The notes beneath the pieces are model-generated. The model searched no databases and was not told the origin of the DNA. It worked only from the letters and a program-made list of their open reading frames with translations. This document shows, piece after piece, positions 2,635 through 28,189 of a stretch of DNA of 28,792 bases. The translations under genes were made by a program, and so were the position numbers. How positions within the stretch are numbered: position 1 is the stretch's first letter; each line of letters begins with the position of its first letter. Source of the DNA: a virus (Duplodnaviria; Heunggongvirae; Uroviricota; Caudoviricetes); IMG/VR virus record IMGVR_UViG_2778261570_000004, positions 1-28,792 of that record; one strand, given 5' to 3'.

Positions 2635-2756
2635 CAAGAAAGAAGCCGACTTGTGATCCCTTTCTGCGGGCATTTGAAAGTGAATCCAGCTCAGGCAGTC
2701 GGCTTCTTTCTTGTGTGAGATGTAGCGTATTTGCCCATCTTCGGGTGGGCTTTTTT
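2635..2756 (+). ncRNA. candidate structured small RNA: 17-bp perfect inverted repeat hairpin followed by intrinsic terminator
   Basis: CAAGAAAGAAGCCGACT (2635-2651) pairs perfectly with AGTCGGCTTCTTTCTTG (2697-2713); GCCCA-loop-TGGGC plus T6 at 2733-2756; no credible CDS. Confidence 0.35.
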
Positions 2757-2930
2757 AGGGTTTTCGTCATGGTTAGCGACTTTGCGGCGGTTTAGAACCC
2801 GACCATTAAAGTAAATGCAAACGATGATCTGATGATGGTAGCGGCCTAAGAAGCCTGACGCCACGGGGTATGAGTCGTCCCCCGTCAAAAAATCGACCGC
2901 AGAGTGTCCCCGTCTGTGTATTAGGGAACG

Positions 2931-3026
2931 GGGAGGCATAACAGGCAAGGGCGCTGGTGTGATTAACCAGATGAATGAGAAGGGTCAGGTCTTTCTGGTC
3001 AGCGCCCTTACCTGTTACGTCCCTCC
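2931..3026. repeat. long imperfect hairpin, module copy 1 (ACAGGCAAGGGCGCTG / CAGCGCCCTTACCTGTT)
   Basis: About 26-bp stem with one G-U position; shares ACAGG-AAGGG / CCCTTACC-GTTG arms with copies at 3373, 3583 and 4993. Confidence 0.45.
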
Positions 3027-3216
3027 CGCGTAACAGCCATTGATTAATGGCTTTCTGGGATAACATCCTACTACGGGTATATCCCGTCATGCTGAAGGCG
3101 CTAATCACGCTGGAAGCCAGGGTTGTGCATCCCCTGTTACCGAATTGCAGCCAGGGCGCGGTGCGCCGAAAAGCATACGGAGGTGGAAGCCCTCGCCGGA
3201 GACGTACCCGGCAAGT

Positions 3217-3292
3217 GATGGTGTAGCTCAGCGGTTAGAGCGGTTGACTGTTAATCAACGGGTCGATGGTTCAAATCCATCCACCATCGCCA
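3217..3292 (+). tRNA. tRNA-Asn (anticodon GTT)
   Basis: Manual cloverleaf: acceptor GATGGTG/CACCATC, D-arm GCTC..GAGC, anticodon loop CTGTTAA, T-arm GATGG-TTCAAAT-CCATC, encoded CCA. Confidence 0.85.
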
Positions 3293-3294
3293 AT

Positions 3295-3370
3295 GCCGGT
3301 TTAGCTCAGTTGGTAGAGCGCCTGCCTTGTAAGCAGGATGTCAGCGGTTCGAGTCCGTTAATCGGCACCA
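3295..3370 (+). tRNA. tRNA-Thr (anticodon TGT)
   Basis: Manual cloverleaf: acceptor GCCGGTT/AATCGGC (one G-U), anticodon stem CCTGC/GCAGG with loop CTTGTAA, T-loop TTCGAGT, encoded CCA. Confidence 0.85.
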
Positions 3371-3372
3371 GC

Positions 3373-3460
3373 ACAACAGGTAAGGGTATTTTGCGACGTC
3401 GGAGATCGCCGAGCTTGGCAGAGGGTTCGAATCCCTACGAAGTACCCTTACCGTTGTGAT
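3373..3460. repeat. hairpin module copy 2, containing a T-arm-like GGTTCGAATCC (tRNA-like remnant)
   Basis: Arms ACAACAGGTAAGGG / CCCTTACCGTTGTG; internal AGGGTTCGAATCCCT; does not fold as a canonical 76-nt tRNA. Confidence 0.4.
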
Positions 3461-3582
3461 GAATGCGCAGGCTGATGCGCGAAAGACATTGCAGCTATTG
3501 CGGAAAAGAGCTGTTCGGCGGGGCAATTAAACGCCCGTGAGAGTCTGAAATAACCGCAAGCCGGAGATCAGCACCGGTCATC

Positions 3583-3657
3583 ACAACACAACAGGTAAGG
3601 GCATTCTCCCTTATGGGGCTTGGCTTAAATGCATCGAGTGCTCTTACCGTTGTGATG
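3583..3657. repeat. hairpin module copy 3
   Basis: CATCACAACACAACAGGTAAGGG ... CTCTTACCGTTGTGATG. Confidence 0.4.
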
Positions 3658-4018
3658 AAGTGCAGCTCTTTGAAGCAACCAGAAGATAAGCATCTGGCTT
3701 CACAACATAAACCGCAGGAACGACCAATAAACGGTAGTCCGTATGGAGAACACCCCGTTGAGGAAGAGGCCTGGCCGGAACCGTAACCGGCACTATAACG
3801 TTGAGAACACTGGCGTAACGGGTTCATATCCCAATCTACAGGTCCACCAGGAATGCTCTTTCCGTTGCGGTGAATGCGGCTAAGCGCACGCGGAACAGTT
3901 AAAACAATCCTCCTTAATGGTTAAACATTCCGACGTTAATTGTTAACTGGTTAACGTCACCGGGAGGCACTCGGCACCGCAATCTAATAAATATGTCACT
4001 TTTATTGAGGGATAACCA

Positions 4019-4453
4019 ATGTTCGGTAAATTGTTCGGCAAGAAAGTCGCTTCTGCAAAAGTAGAGCTGAAAAAAGTTGAGAATCGCGATCTGATGGAGG
4101 CCATCATCGGTGGCTGTTTGTTGGTGTCTGCCGCTGATGGTGAAATCGAAAAAGAAGAAACAGCGAAACTTGATCAGCTTGTCCGCTCTAATCCGCGTCT
4201 TAGTCATTTTGGTAACGAAATTACTGCAACAATTACCCGCTTTACCGAGCAACTGGAAGCTGGCTTCCGTGTTGGTCGCATGAATATCCTTCGCGAAATT
4301 GAAGATATCAAAAACGATCCAAAAGAAGCGGAAGAAGTATTCGTTAACATGCTGACAATTGCAGAAGCGGACGGTGAAATCGAGCCAGCAGAACACAAAG
4401 TACTGGAAGAAGTAGGCCGTCGTTTAGGTCTTCGTGTGGAAGATTATCTGTAA
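4019..4453 (+). CDS. TerB-like protein (tellurite-resistance TerB family; resembles P1 TciA)
   Basis: Repeated ADGEIE...E motif (SAADGEIEKEE, AEADGEIEPAEH) typical of TerB; SD GAGGGA before ATG. Confidence 0.65.
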   Translation: MFGKLFGKKVASAKVELKKVENRDLMEAIIGGCLLVSAADGEIEKEETAKLDQLVRSNPRLSHFGNEITATITRFTEQLEAGFRVGRMNILREIEDIKNDPKEAEEVFVNMLTIAEADGEIEPAEHKVLEEVGRRLGLRVEDYL

Positions 4454-4617
4454 TGGCAAGCAAGGCACGTATCGCAATCGCCATTGGTTTTCTCTTGCTG
4501 TCCGTGCTGGTGGATTTCACCAGCACAATCCTGTCAGTTTTATCGGACGGGGCGTTGGTGGCAGTAGCTGTAACATTGGTATGGCCGATATTAAAAACAG
4601 CTTCTAAGGATCAGTGA
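4453..4617 (+). CDS. small hydrophobic peptide (54 aa), translationally coupled (TAATG)
   Basis: MASKARIAIAIGFLLLSVLVDF...; stop/start overlap with TerB-like gene; below track size cutoff. Confidence 0.45.
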   Translation: MASKARIAIAIGFLLLSVLVDFTSTILSVLSDGALVAVAVTLVWPILKTASKDQ

Positions 4618-4724
4618 TGGGCTTCTGGGATTTTGCTGACAAGCATCCAATTGTTCTCGTTGTCATTGCTGGCATAGTTGTAGGCGGTATTGCTGGCGTC
4701 ATAGAAGCACTCAGGAAACAGTAA
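4617..4724 (+). CDS. small hydrophobic peptide (35 aa), translationally coupled (TGATG)
   Basis: MGFWDFADKHPIVLVVIAGIVVGGIAGVIEALRKQ; stop 4 nt before the tRNA. Confidence 0.4.
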   Translation: MGFWDFADKHPIVLVVIAGIVVGGIAGVIEALRKQ

Positions 4725-4727
4725 TCC

Positions 4728-4803
4728 GGCCCTTTAGCTCAGTGGTTAGAGCTGGCGACTCATAATCGCACGGTCACCGGTTCAAGTCCGGTAGGGGCCA
4801 CCA
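4728..4803 (+). tRNA. tRNA with anticodon CAT, ileX-like (Ile2 if lysidine-modified, otherwise Met)
   Basis: Acceptor GGCCCTT/AGGGGCC, anticodon loop CTCATAA, T-arm CCGG-TTCAAGT-CCGG, encoded CCA; strongly resembles E. coli ileX as recalled. Confidence 0.85.
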
Positions 4804-4992
4804 TATTTGGTTGTAACACGGCGTCTGGCACATGCGTCGTTAGCGGTCTGGTGACGTTAAAAGGGGGGAACCTTGCCCCTAGCTCAGGCAACGAACCAGG
4901 TAGCCGGAATGTGCAAGCCACCGTTTGTTGTTTCTCGGGTAAAGGGATTCACCATCCTGGCGATTCGGTGTGACAGCCGGGAAGAGTACGGC

Positions 4993-5045
4993 GCACAACA
5001 GGAAAAGGCGTTTAATTAACGTGAGCGCCGTTTCCGTTGTGGTAA
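4993..5045. repeat. hairpin module copy 5 (ACAACAGGAAAAGGCG / CGCCGTTTCCGTTGTGG)
   Basis: Same arm family as 2931, 3373, 3583. Confidence 0.35.
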
Positions 5046-5262
5046 TTGCGGCTATGCGCTCGTGACGAAGCCATTTTCATTCACTACGTTCTGATAAGTG
5101 ACGTCGCCAGGAGTGGCTAACCTGGCAGGTGGAGGCACCACCGCCACAACTCCTTTCAATTCATCATATAGCCGCTCAGGCTGTAACCCTTAATTAATAC
5201 GAAGTTTCGACATCTCTATCGGTTTAACCGAGGGATGGTCGCGCGTGTAAAAAGGAGACGTT

Positions 5263-5838
5263 ATGTTAACGGCGAACGATAACGCGTATGCAGAAGCAGA
5301 TCTCATATTCAGTGACTTCATCGGTCAGCGGGAACGCTGGACACAAAAGCGAGAGGAACTTTATGCCTCGTTAGTTCGCAAAGGTGTCAACATTGAAACC
5401 GCTCAAAGCGGCGATATGACGGTAGTCAGTGTTGGATTACATGGTGTGAGCGTGTCCGCAGCCAATCATGAGCCATACGTAGCGTTATCCGAGTCGATGG
5501 CAAGGCTAATTAAGTTTCTGAAGCAAACAGAAGCCAATAATGTTTTCATCGCCAAAAAGAACATCAATTTTTCTGCCGCCATGTTCTGGATGATGAAGGG
5601 GCTGGATGCCCGCCGGGCATCATGGCCTAAAGGGAGCTATTTATCGATGTTCCGTGGCAGCATTGGCAGCAAAGAAAAGCTCTTCGAATTCTTGCCGGAA
5701 GAGGCATTCGATATTGTGGAAGGGTGCGATGTGATGGTTATGCCTCGCCTGGTAATGATGAATGGGGATTTACAGGCGCAGACAGACTGGTTCGCAACTG
5801 GCGTGGATATTATCGCAACTGACTGGGAGGCATTCTGA
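5263..5838 (+). CDS. hypothetical protein with C-terminal DUF2829-like domain (191 aa)
   Basis: SD AAGGAG; C-terminal AAMFWMMKGLDARRASWPKGSYL...QTDWFATGVDIIATDWEAF resembles the DUF2829 pattern. Confidence 0.6.
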   Translation: MLTANDNAYAEADLIFSDFIGQRERWTQKREELYASLVRKGVNIETAQSGDMTVVSVGLHGVSVSAANHEPYVALSESMARLIKFLKQTEANNVFIAKKNINFSAAMFWMMKGLDARRASWPKGSYLSMFRGSIGSKEKLFEFLPEEAFDIVEGCDVMVMPRLVMMNGDLQAQTDWFATGVDIIATDWEAF

Positions 5839-6230
5839 TGTACGAGACAACAAAATTAAGCATTCACGAAGTCTCCAACGTGGAGTGGAATATCGTCACC
5901 TGTAAGATTGTATCGTGTAATGCTGCGCGTACTGATGCAGGCCATAAGAGCACGATAACAGGCTACATGGTAATGGCTTATAGGGGATTGAGAGTTCGCT
6001 TTATCTGGAAAGCTCGGCAATTGACACCATTCAGAGAGCCGTCAATGCCATTAGAGGTAGAACAGGATTATTTAAGCCTGCCGGAAATAGACGGTGCAAC
6101 GCTGGTGGATTCTGATGGTCGTAAGGCTGATTTTGAAGTCAGCTTAAAGGTGGCGCAGGCCGTAATTAATAACTCACGTGGTAAGTGGATCGCTAAGGTA
6201 AAACACGTCGTTCGCTTATCTCGCTGGTAG
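5838..6230 (+). CDS. hypothetical protein (130 aa), coupled to upstream gene (ATGA overlap)
   Basis: ORF with start overlapping preceding stop. Confidence 0.5.
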   Translation: MYETTKLSIHEVSNVEWNIVTCKIVSCNAARTDAGHKSTITGYMVMAYRGLRVRFIWKARQLTPFREPSMPLEVEQDYLSLPEIDGATLVDSDGRKADFEVSLKVAQAVINNSRGKWIAKVKHVVRLSRW

Positions 6231-6338: not shown

Positions 6339-6731
6339 ATGGAGCATATCAGCAGCGCAGAAATTGCGGATATCATGATTAGGGCTGACTGCTATCTGAC
6401 AGTCACCGAAATTACCACTCTAGCTAAAGAAAAATATCCTCACCTTCATGTTTCACGCGTAAGTGTAACCAACATCATTCGGCATTTTGTGCGGTCAAGC
6501 CGAGCTATTTGTGAGCTTGATGATCGTGTTTACCCACGGAAATACTGGTTGCATGGCCTGAACGGATATCAGTTCAAGGTGCGCGGGCGCACCCCTGAAT
6601 ACGGCAGTTTGCTGGTTAAAAACTGTAGCCGGAAGTCTGCAGAACTGGCGCGACAAGAGCAGCGCAAGCTGGTGGACATGGCTAATAAGCTGTGGAATGC
6701 CGCAGTTAAAAAGCGTGGTGTTGCTTTATGA
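6339..6731 (+). CDS. hypothetical protein immediately upstream of terminase genes (130 aa)
   Basis: ORF; 4-nt overlap with terminase small subunit gene; position analogous to a late-gene activator in P1-type phages, not verified. Confidence 0.55.
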   Translation: MEHISSAEIADIMIRADCYLTVTEITTLAKEKYPHLHVSRVSVTNIIRHFVRSSRAICELDDRVYPRKYWLHGLNGYQFKVRGRTPEYGSLLVKNCSRKSAELARQEQRKLVDMANKLWNAAVKKRGVAL

Positions 6732-27877: not shown

Positions 27878-27982
27878 AATACTGACTGTTGCGCCATGGC
27901 ATTATCGTGGGGTATATTTCTACGGCACCTTAGAAAAACGGGTGCCGGGATTGGAACCCCGGATAATGTCAAAGGCGACACA

Positions 27983-28004
27983 GACGCCGAAAGCGTCTTT
28001 TTTT
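27983..28004 (+). terminator. rho-independent terminator (GACGC-cgaaa-GCGTC plus T7)
   Basis: Perfect 5-bp stem and run of seven T. Confidence 0.6.
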
Positions 28005-28189
28005 GTGTCATGCCATCGCACAGCCATACGTAGCGTTTAGCTCAGAGATCAATGGTAGTGCTGGCTGGGCTGCCGAAAGGCAGGCCGGTTCCCTTTGACG
28101 CCGGTAGTTCCAACCCAGTCAGTGCTACCGCCATTGAGATTGGAACCTCACGCGGTAGCTCCTTAACTTAGTCAAAGGAGGCTGCCAAT

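Follow-up and report, generated by a model that had tools for sequence, protein, structure and literature searches.

Introduction

Small hydrophobic peptides encoded directly behind a TerB-domain gene raise two questions, namely whether they are translated at all and what they would do for the phage that carries them. We have addressed these questions for a stretch of DNA of 28,792 nucleotides (nt) from a virus of the Caudoviricetes (IMG/VR record IMGVR_UViG_2778261570_000004, positions 1 to 28,792; the whole stretch is hereafter called the window). In this window, a TerB-like gene, tciA, is followed on the plus strand by two micro-open reading frames (ORFs), tciB and tciC, and by a tRNA gene, trnI. 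A preliminary description of the locus, made from the letters alone, had likened it to the tciABC-tRNA block of phage P1 and had suggested, as a generic remark, that small membrane peptides of this kind can be toxic or modulate cell division. Judging by sequence identity, the locus is almost certainly the P1-family tciA-tciB-tciC-trnI block with a P7-type tciA allele. The block is already known, and the P1 and P7 records annotate all three ORFs and Pfam and PHROG families exist. As for its function, the explanation that we consider the best, and to which we give an even chance of being right, is that TciA, TciB, and TciC would be co-translated and that TciA would be docked at the inner membrane and act in lytic growth.

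Organization and identity of the tci block

The genes of the block are tightly linked (Table 1). The stop codon of tciA and the start codon of tciB overlap by 1 nt in the sequence TAATG at 4451-4455, and tciB is joined to tciC in the same manner by TGATG at 4615-4619, as the preliminary description had read them. The stop codon of tciC lies 3 nt before the tRNA(CAT) gene, and the ileX-like tRNA adjoins the block as had been claimed. Both small products are indeed hydrophobic, with maximum 19-residue Kyte-Doolittle means of 2.18 (TciB) and 2.73 (TciC), and the remark that an ORF track would miss them is plausible, since a default cut-off of 60 amino acids (aa) hides both. Shine-Dalgarno-like motifs stand before all three starts (GAGGGA for tciA, GGAAG for tciB, and AAGGA for tciC). 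In the ORF listing, tciC begins at an alternative GTG at 4614, giving a 36-aa form, and the ATG form has 35 aa. The identical three-ORF order with its overlaps was found again in P1, P7, SJ46-type, and D6-type elements. Because the ORFs and overlaps recur in these elements, and the pair of TerB and DUF3927 (the Pfam family of TciB) in many unrelated phage backbones, the arrangement is not due to chance. In the RefSeq annotation made by the Prokaryotic Genome Annotation Pipeline (PGAP), tciB is called and tciC never.

Megablast against phage records gave matches to P1, P7, and D6, in which the matched annotations are tciA, tciB, and tciC (P1), terB, upf69.4, and upf69.6 (P7), plus tRNA-Asn, tRNA-Thr, and tRNA-Ile. 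The proposed resemblance to P1 proved to be identity. The identity of the window TciA is 100% to both P7 TerB and the protein of P1 isolate OP279344, 99% to that of D6, and only 31% to reference P1 TciA, the gene of which is a second allele (141 aa). The corresponding values for TciB are 100% (OP279344), 98% (P7), 85% (reference P1), and 67% (D6). On the nucleotide level, tciC and trnI are identical to the P1 and P7 copies, and the TciC protein is likewise identical to both. The PHROG families are 632 for TciA (1.9e-63), 1470 for TciB, and 23152 for TciC (3.4e-27). Between tciC and the tRNA there are 9 nt in loci of the D6 type, as against 3 nt in the window, in P1 and P7, and at five other loci.

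The likeness to P1 holds for gene order, sizes, overlaps, and the tRNA gap, but not for the genomic context. In P1 and P7, the shared module is located in the ban operon, which is controlled by C1 operators, between dmt and ban. In the window, no ban was found downstream, and orf6-orf5-lpa-pacAB are present instead. The order in the window is pmgS (757-1977), tRNA-Asn, tRNA-Thr, tciA, tciB, tciC, trnI, two ORFs, a lpa-like gene, pacA, and pacB, and the annotated order in D6 is pmgS, tRNAs, tciA, tciB, orf6, orf5, lpa, pacA, and pacB. Because positions 3854-4995 are 98.4% identical to P7, as against 87.7% to D6 for 3854-5300, these identities place a P7-type tci cassette in a D6-type backbone.

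TciA and TciB

TciA is a TerB-fold protein. The Pfam TerB profile (PF05099) matches it at profile positions 2-113 of 118 with 54.3 bits (2e-14), exceeding the cut-off of 24.4 bits and bearing out the earlier reading of the first gene as TerB-like. Over its full length, TciA aligns with the solved Klebsiella TerB 2JXU (phmmer, E = 5e-7), and its two ADGxIxxxE motifs, AADGEIEKEE (38-47) and EADGEIEPAE (116-125), are aligned to 2JXU. In the TerB family, these motifs are the putative metal-binding site. The AlphaFold2 (AF2) model has six helices with a predicted local distance difference test score of 93, and its best fold in the PDB is 2H5N (probability 1.0, template modeling score 0.52-0.60), a protein of unknown function that is presumably TerB-like, a point on which the tool output is silent. 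Between the window and D6, tciA has 19 synonymous and 3 non-synonymous differences, and by this ratio of non-synonymous to synonymous substitution rates (dN/dS 0.04) the gene is under strong purifying selection. Window-type TciA forms 654 database clusters, reaching Pectobacterium, Dickeya, Serratia, and Pseudomonas. Residues 1-20 (MFGKLFGKKVASAKVELKKV) make up a basic, hydrophobic tail with a net charge of +5, and the remainder is acidic with a net charge of -13. This charge dipole fits the amphitropic, membrane-associating behavior of TerB proteins that is reported in work cited by a preprint (bioRxiv 10.1101/2025.09.30.679545). Two TciA peptides have been reported in CsCl-purified P1 preparations (PMC9024508).

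TciB is covered by the Pfam profile DUF3927 (PF13064) at positions 3-53 of 53, with 92.4 bits against a cut-off of 25 (1.7e-26). Among 1.84 billion proteins, its family comprises 282 clusters when the identity threshold is 90% and 155 representatives when it is 50%, nearly all of 50-54 aa, and all source-named hits come from Enterobacterales or their phages. The family-invariant residues R6, D21-F-T, S28, D32-G, L35, and P45 are present in TciB, and the dN/dS of tciB is about 0.3. As judged by its profile match and substitution pattern, TciB is a membrane peptide of the DUF3927 family on which purifying selection acts, and it is very probably translated and inserted into a membrane. Both ends of the peptide are basic, and the 40 hydrophobic residues between them include two invariant Asp. 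From hydropathy and the positive-inside rule, a two-helix hairpin with both ends in the cytoplasm is expected, which AF2 neither supports nor excludes.

Coding status of TciC

TciC is probably translated, although we hold this with less assurance than for TciB. It consists of an acidic head, an 18-residue helix rich in small-xxx-small motifs, and a basic tail, a layout which suggests an N-out/C-in single pass. On the other side stands the possibility that only tciA, or tciA together with tciB, is real, and that tciC is an untranslated spacer or 3' untranslated region constrained by the processing of the adjacent tRNA. For tciB, family-wide conservation essentially excludes such an explanation. 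For tciC, the explanation agrees with several observations. The dN/dS between close variants is 0.64-0.89, which is near neutral. There is no Pfam family for TciC, tblastn against phage records retrieved P1/P7/SJ46-type copies only, and the ORF is restricted to P1/P7/SJ46/D6-type elements, with no homolog outside the P1/D6 group. In addition, PGAP does not call tciC, its 35-codon frame stays open in 15% of shuffles, and TciC is without proteomic detection.

Other observations speak against a spacer. All four tciC variants, including the nearly saturated D6 form MMDFWTYIDKNPGWSLLFLLVIVYGVEQVAKNLRRRK, keep the start overlapping the tciB stop and the Shine-Dalgarno motif, and they also keep an M-x-F-W...DK-x-P head, a hydrophobic core of helix length, and a basic tail. 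The amino-acid replacements among the variants are all conservative. In simulations of random substitution, the hydrophobicity as observed was retained in only about 1% of cases (p ~0.01), and among shuffles of D6 tciC, 0.5% were both open and equally hydrophobic (p ~0.005). We therefore regard an untranslated tciC as a live possibility, but an unlikely one and in the minority.

The TerB-DUF3927 cassette in other phages

The TerB-DUF3927 pair occurs in P1-like, N4-like, P2-like, and lambdoid phages and in Cyrano-type elements, and at all TerB-containing loci inspected the two genes either adjoin or share up to 8 nt. The lytic N4-like phage Pollock has the pair among its DNA-metabolism genes, and tblastn matches were also obtained in Salmonella phages of the FSL SP-058/076 type. 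In P2-like prophages of Pectobacterium, it is part of the early operon, with the repressor/Cox region on one side and the replication genes on the other. In many lambdoid prophages of enterobacteria, it comes first after the Q antiterminator and a terminator-like hairpin, directly before the holins and endolysin. By blastn, 1106 of the 5426 complete E. coli genomes carry the pair, in up to 8 places per genome. One further locus (L015) holds only a 3' remnant of TerB beside DUF3927. The leaders upstream of TerB in the lambdoid, P2-like, and Cyrano-type loci could not be aligned with that of the window, and direct descent of the cassette together with its leader is therefore not claimed. As a separate observation, a group I intron (Rfam, 101 bits) is present in Pollock about 450 nt downstream of the pair (L006 2615-2967).

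In prophages of Pseudomonas, the gene behind a window-type TerB (65-76% identical) overlaps it by 4 nt and encodes an unrelated single-pass protein of 67 aa. Because TerB is coupled to an unrelated protein there, the membrane partner is exchangeable, and the conserved unit is, by its gene organization, TerB with a small membrane protein that is predicted to be co-translated. The 67-aa protein (L040 3441-3644; L041/L042 3435-3638) has an N-terminal membrane anchor followed by a conserved C..YYGYQ..RH.K..VGC...GWVP domain, and no Pfam family matches it.

Proposed function and alternative explanations

In the mechanism that we propose, tciA, tciB, and tciC would be translated from one transcript by translational coupling, which would provide matched amounts of the products. 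TciB, and in P1/D6-type phages also TciC, would insert in the inner membrane and dock TciA, with its basic tail and its acidic TerB domain bearing two ADGxIxxxE motifs, at the cytoplasmic face. A physical complex of TciA and TciB is somewhat more probable than its absence. During lytic development, the complex would guard or condition the cytoplasmic membrane, and its candidate roles are to keep the membrane energised and intact against pore-formers, superinfecting phage, or membrane-directed abortive infection (Abi) effectors until programmed lysis. Such a guard or exclusion role in the lytic phase is a tentative proposal, to which we give less than even confidence. More doubtful still is the idea that TerB and DUF3927 (with TciC) are a self-contained membrane-surveillance module, in which an amphitropic TerB sensor is tethered to one or two micro-proteins. 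Such a module would protect against pore-forming attack (Abi effectors, colicins, and superinfecting phage) or block secondary infection, thereby preserving holin timing.

Action in the lytic phase is proposed mainly because of where the cassette lies: four phage types have it in operons that a repressor or Q controls, and lytic phages carry it too. The locations concerned are the ban operon of P1 and P7, the interval between Q and holin in lambdoid phages, the early operon of P2-like phages, and the DNA-metabolism genes of Pollock. Transcripts of the tci genes have been quantified during P1vir infection (bioRxiv 10.64898/2025.12.28.696737).

Several findings weigh against the explanation by a membrane-docked TciABC acting in lytic growth. 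The AF2 monomer of TciB is one uninterrupted helix and not a hairpin, and the narrow distribution and near-neutral dN/dS of tciC have already been described. In P1, screening by CRISPR interference classed tciA, tciB, tciC, and trnI as non-essential, their knock-down having no effect on plaque formation (PMC10695390), and roughly half of the members of one P1 subgroup have lost tciABC, which has been described as a variable region (PMC9603915). Published work contains no demonstrated translation of tciB or tciC, no TciA-TciB interaction, and no phenotype. Within 3 mismatches, the C1-operator consensus ATTGCTCTAATAAATTT has no match anywhere in the window, and a generic promoter scan found promoter-like sites no more frequently than in shuffles. 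DUF3927 also occurs without TerB, in phage 434 and in locus L017. TerB-DUF3927 fusions were considered as evidence of interaction and rejected, the five sequences (P0155, P0302, P0320, P0259, and P0314) being read as frameshifted or chimeric assemblies.

The chief rival is a prophage-borne system of defence or superinfection exclusion, and it is the one closest to the toxic peptides of the preliminary description. TciA would survey the membrane and, on infection, free or activate TciB and TciC as membrane-disrupting effectors, the outcome being abortive infection or blocked DNA entry. TerB domains are found in the validated systems Shango and Bunzi, and Dionysus pairs TerB with a pore-forming membrane protein (bioRxiv 10.1101/2025.09.30.679545). 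The ter operon has historically been linked to phage inhibition, and plasmid prophages often carry defence cargo. Moreover, the slot of the cassette in other P1-like plasmids has alternative membrane-associated cargo, an SPFH-domain gene, and the Pseudomonas prophage cassette is located near a cI-type repressor. However, PADLOC gave no meaningful match, so that the block was not assigned to a known defence system; the best match of TciA is PDC-S48 with E = 0.0086, nothing matched TciB or TciC, and none of the partner genes that accompany TerB in the known systems is present. Expression in the lysogen also agrees poorly with a cassette that lies in lytic operons under repressor or Q control and that strictly lytic N4-like phages carry as well, and we consider defence of this kind unlikely. 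As for stand-alone toxins, neither micro-ORF matched the type I toxin-like families Hok, Ldr, TisB, or Ibs in Pfam, NCBIfam, or PADLOC, and no antisense promoter for a type I antitoxin rose above the shuffle background; the micro-ORFs are operon-coupled and not standalone.

Two further explanations follow from the names of the genes. TciA is a true TerB-family protein, the ter operon confers resistance to tellurite and to pore-forming colicins, and tciA and tciB figure as possible fitness morons in papers on D6-like plasmids; accordingly, the block could be a lysogenic-conversion moron that gives the host resistance to tellurite, colicins, or both. However, TerB stands alone, with no TerC, TerD, or TerE homolog in the neighborhood, the incompleteness of the operon is remarked on in the D6-like paper itself, the gene names are derived from homology, and the cassette is placed in lytic operons and lytic phages. 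We rejected the tellurite-resistance reading for lack of terC, terD, and terE, and a conversion moron of either type is very unlikely. The least probable explanation, which we regard as barely credible, is a cell-division inhibitor, in which septation would be blocked by the small membrane peptides while the phage grows, in the manner of Kil, DicB, or Icd. The tci genes bear the annotation label "inhibition of cell division", P1 carries other division inhibitors near its immunity regions, a preprint on Hfq groups the tci genes with icd and kilA (bioRxiv 10.64898/2025.12.28.696737), and ter operons have reportedly been linked to filamentous growth in Yersinia. However, Pfam, NCBIfam, and PHROG scans revealed no similarity to known division inhibitors, and the label comes from homology to ter genes only, so that the gene name is its sole support. 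A membrane-docked TciABC acting in lytic growth remains the preferred explanation.

Genomic surroundings and RNA elements

The features of the block and of its surroundings are listed in Table 1. Two minus-strand ORFs were dismissed as genes. One, at 3914-4396 (160 aa), is antisense to a gene under strong purifying selection, and the other, at 3495-3827 (110 aa), spans hairpin repeats.

Table 1. Positions of the tci genes and of neighboring features in the window
Feature	Position	Strand	Description
tciA	4019-4453	+	ATG 4019, TAA 4451-4453; 144 aa, TerB-domain protein
tciB	4453-4617	+	ATG 4453-4455, TGA 4615-4617; 54 aa, DUF3927 membrane peptide
tciC	4617-4724	+	ATG 4617-4619, TAA 4722-4724; 35-aa single-helix hydrophobic peptide
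trnI	4728-4803	+	tRNA-Ile2, anticodon CAT, ileX type
Shared mosaic module tRNA-tci-tRNA	2730-4995	+	blastn 92-98% to P1/P7 inside only; D6 matches flanks too
Terminator-like hairpin with T-run	2733-2750	+	consensus scan; left edge of shared module
tRNA-Asn (GTT)	3217-3292	+	ARAGORN; Rfam tRNA 74.5 bits; P1 trnA
tRNA-Thr (TGT)	3295-3370	+	ARAGORN; Rfam tRNA 72.9 bits; P1 trnT
Long-stem hairpin repeat 1	3371-3463	+	minimum free energy (MFE) -41.6 kcal/mol, z = -5.8; repeat families D2/D3, I13
Long-stem hairpin repeat 2	3586-3659	+	MFE -33.6 kcal/mol, z = -6.1
STnc100-like structured leader	3866-3981	+	RF02076, 42 bits, E = 4e-8 to 5e-7, model 31-147 of 206
Conserved non-coding element, ~175 nt	4818-4990	+	directly 3' of trnI
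Long-stem hairpin repeat 3	4991-5046	+	MFE -25.4 kcal/mol, z = -5.3; right edge, P1/P7 homology ends 4995
Two proteins of unknown function	5263-5838, 5838-6230		PHROG 7362 and 7004
lpa-like gene	6339-6731

ARAGORN calls trnI a tRNA-Met from its anticodon, RefSeq labels identical copies tRNA-Ile, and P1 annotates the gene as trnI. Its identity to the chromosomal tRNA-Ile(CAT), a gene present in all 5426 E. coli genomes, is 89.5%, and its sequence contains the C4-G69 and C5-G68 acceptor pairs. TilS reportedly uses these pairs to tell tRNA-Ile2 from tRNA-Met. By these features, trnI is a tRNA-Ile2 that is predicted to read AUA after lysidine modification. In pacA and pacB, ATA accounts for about 20% of the Ile codons, and of the 10 Ile codons that tciB and tciC contain, 3 are ATA.

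Among PLSDB plasmids, the slot of the cassette has four states, namely the window allele, the D6 allele (about 85% identical), the reference-P1 allele, and a state without tci genes. In the reference-P1 allele, homology to the window resumes inside tciB at about 4484, marking a recombination breakpoint. In the tci-less plasmids, only trnI and the last few bases of tciC are kept, and an SPFH-domain gene is in place of the cassette. In agreement with these four states, tciABC has been described in the literature as variable (PMC9603915). The SPFH-domain gene was observed at L026 655-1482 (plasmid NZ_CP027443.1), in the slot between trnT and trnI of a tciABC-less P1-like plasmid. MH422554, MH445380/1, and RCS47 are also tciABC-less P1-like plasmids, and some records have a serine-protease or lipoprotein gene in the slot. 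It seems that different membrane-associated cargo genes replace one another in this slot.

The terminator-like hairpin at the left edge matches the 3' end of a dicF-like feature of P1 (2061-2162), and homology starts at window position 2730, equivalent to 2125 of the P1 locus (L001). The three long-stem hairpins share the base of the stem (CACAACAGGTAAGGG / CCCTTACCGTTGTG) and vary in their tips, that of copy 1 resembling a tRNA T-arm (GGGTTCGAATCCC). They are candidate RNase III-type processing sites, recombination joints, or both. Because tRNAs and long hairpins bracket the transcript, its ends are probably set by the processing of these elements; in the proposed mechanism, tRNA processing (RNase P/E) and RNase III-type cleavage would define them, and trnI would be the 3' boundary. 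We also observed a related inverted copy at 2928-3028 and a half copy at 3852-3874, and the long-stem hairpins coincide with junctions where homology among P1, P7, and D6 starts or stops. The putative lipoprotein gene plp of P1 (L001 2742-3119) and the corresponding minus-strand ORF at 3495-3827 span the hairpin-repeat region, in which P1, P7, and the window differ from one another by indels of repeat units, and the ORF call may be spurious.

The structured leader of tciA resembles the small RNA (sRNA) STnc100. Its score of 42 bits lies below the gathering score of 47, and it matches the core of the model only, which makes it a related fragment and not a member of the family. The 3' part of the leader is conserved upstream of both tciA alleles. 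Full-length STnc100 is located 8-290 nt downstream of DUF3927 in three lambdoid loci (L163 3834-4000, L027 3211-3399, and L013 3406-3609). A TerB cassette with a stable RNA directly behind it, as trnI is in the window, is therefore a recurring layout. The partial leader and the three lambdoid loci suggest that sRNAs of the STnc100/PasD type are linked to, and perhaps processed from, TerB-DUF3927 transcripts. A trio of small hairpins was also observed on the plus strand (2490-2514, 3955-3981, and 5126-5150), with a conserved AGGCA loop, each hairpin being followed by GC..CAA. Their 5-bp stems co-vary (GGGGG/CCCCC, CCGGG/CTCGG, and GGTGG/CCACC), and they are located 45-140 nt upstream of ORF starts, the middle copy being the 3' hairpin of the STnc100-like leader.

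The non-coding element behind trnI is conserved to about 100% among P1, P7, and D6, whereas the adjoining genes diverge. As a side observation, it is about 80% identical in the unrelated podovirus TL-2011b. A 24-nt core of the element is present in at least 120 IMG/VR contigs, with 82 unique variants among the matches listed. Among these listed matches, and on the same strand as the core, a tRNA(CAT) ends 13-14 nt upstream in 25 of 120 loci or, alternatively, a tRNA-Arg(TCT) starts 74-81 nt downstream. No Rfam family matches the element, and the folding energies of the single sequence equal those of shuffles on either strand. The element contains two conserved blocks that are complementary to each other, and compensatory changes occur in a hairpin at its 3' side, covariation being limited. 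Two consensus folds disagree in the invariant core, which is too invariant to fix the fold. The element is possibly an undescribed RNA of phage tRNA clusters.

Far from the block, Rfam matches above threshold were observed on the plus strand for isrK (27925-28003, 62.7 bits) and for the C4 antisense RNA (28048-28135, 77.1 bits), which correspond to an immI-type immunity region of P1-like phages.

Comparison with known systems

As a sequence feature, the block adds nothing new, and the TerB-DUF3927 pair is very common phage cargo. If the doubtful surveillance reading were true, TerB would be used on both sides of the conflict between phage and host, and DUF3927, which is detectable in about one-fifth of complete E. 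coli genomes, would have its first function. Considering that TerB domains have recently been found in membrane-linked anti-phage systems, tciABC could show the role of TerB at the membrane, protection versus exclusion.

The D6 locus has the same backbone as the window and carries the block at the same position, with a nearly identical TciA. It differs in its TciB, as given above, and in a tciC that is almost unrelated in sequence, has 37 codons, and overlaps tciB by ATGA. In the D6 sequence (L004, NC_050154), this tciC-like ORF (5186-5299) and a tRNA-Ile(CAT) gene (5309-5381) are present but unannotated, and for the three tRNAs that the D6 reference does annotate, Rfam and ARAGORN call the other strand.

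With the ter determinant terZABCDE, the block has in common a TerB domain over the whole length (2JXU) and a similar design, in which a soluble or amphitropic TerB goes with an integral membrane partner. On the other hand, the window is without TerC, TerD, TerE, and TerZ, the 54-aa DUF3927 peptide replaces the multi-pass TerC, and the setting is a phage lytic operon. No ter genes were found in the annotations of this region in P1, P7, and D6; the neighbors are tRNAs, the PHROG 7362 and 7004 proteins, lpa, and pacAB.

SngA of Shango, BnzA of Bunzi, and DinB/DinC of Dionysus resemble the block in that TerB is combined with membrane proteins in a small operon of a mobile element. In contrast to these defence systems, the block of the window matches no PADLOC profile and has no helicase, ATPase, or pore-forming toxin as a neighbor, and cassettes of the window type are encoded by phages, lytic ones included, inside operons of the lytic cycle.

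Finally, the late-leader moron region of lambdoid phages (Q - tR' - tRNAs/stx/nanS-p/STnc100-PasD - holin) brings together TerB-DUF3927, rare-codon tRNAs of the Ile2 (CAT) and Arg (TCT) types, and an STnc100-type RNA, as in the window. In the window, however, these pieces lie inside a plasmid prophage of the P1/D6 type, and the partial STnc100-like piece is located upstream of tciA, not downstream of DUF3927.

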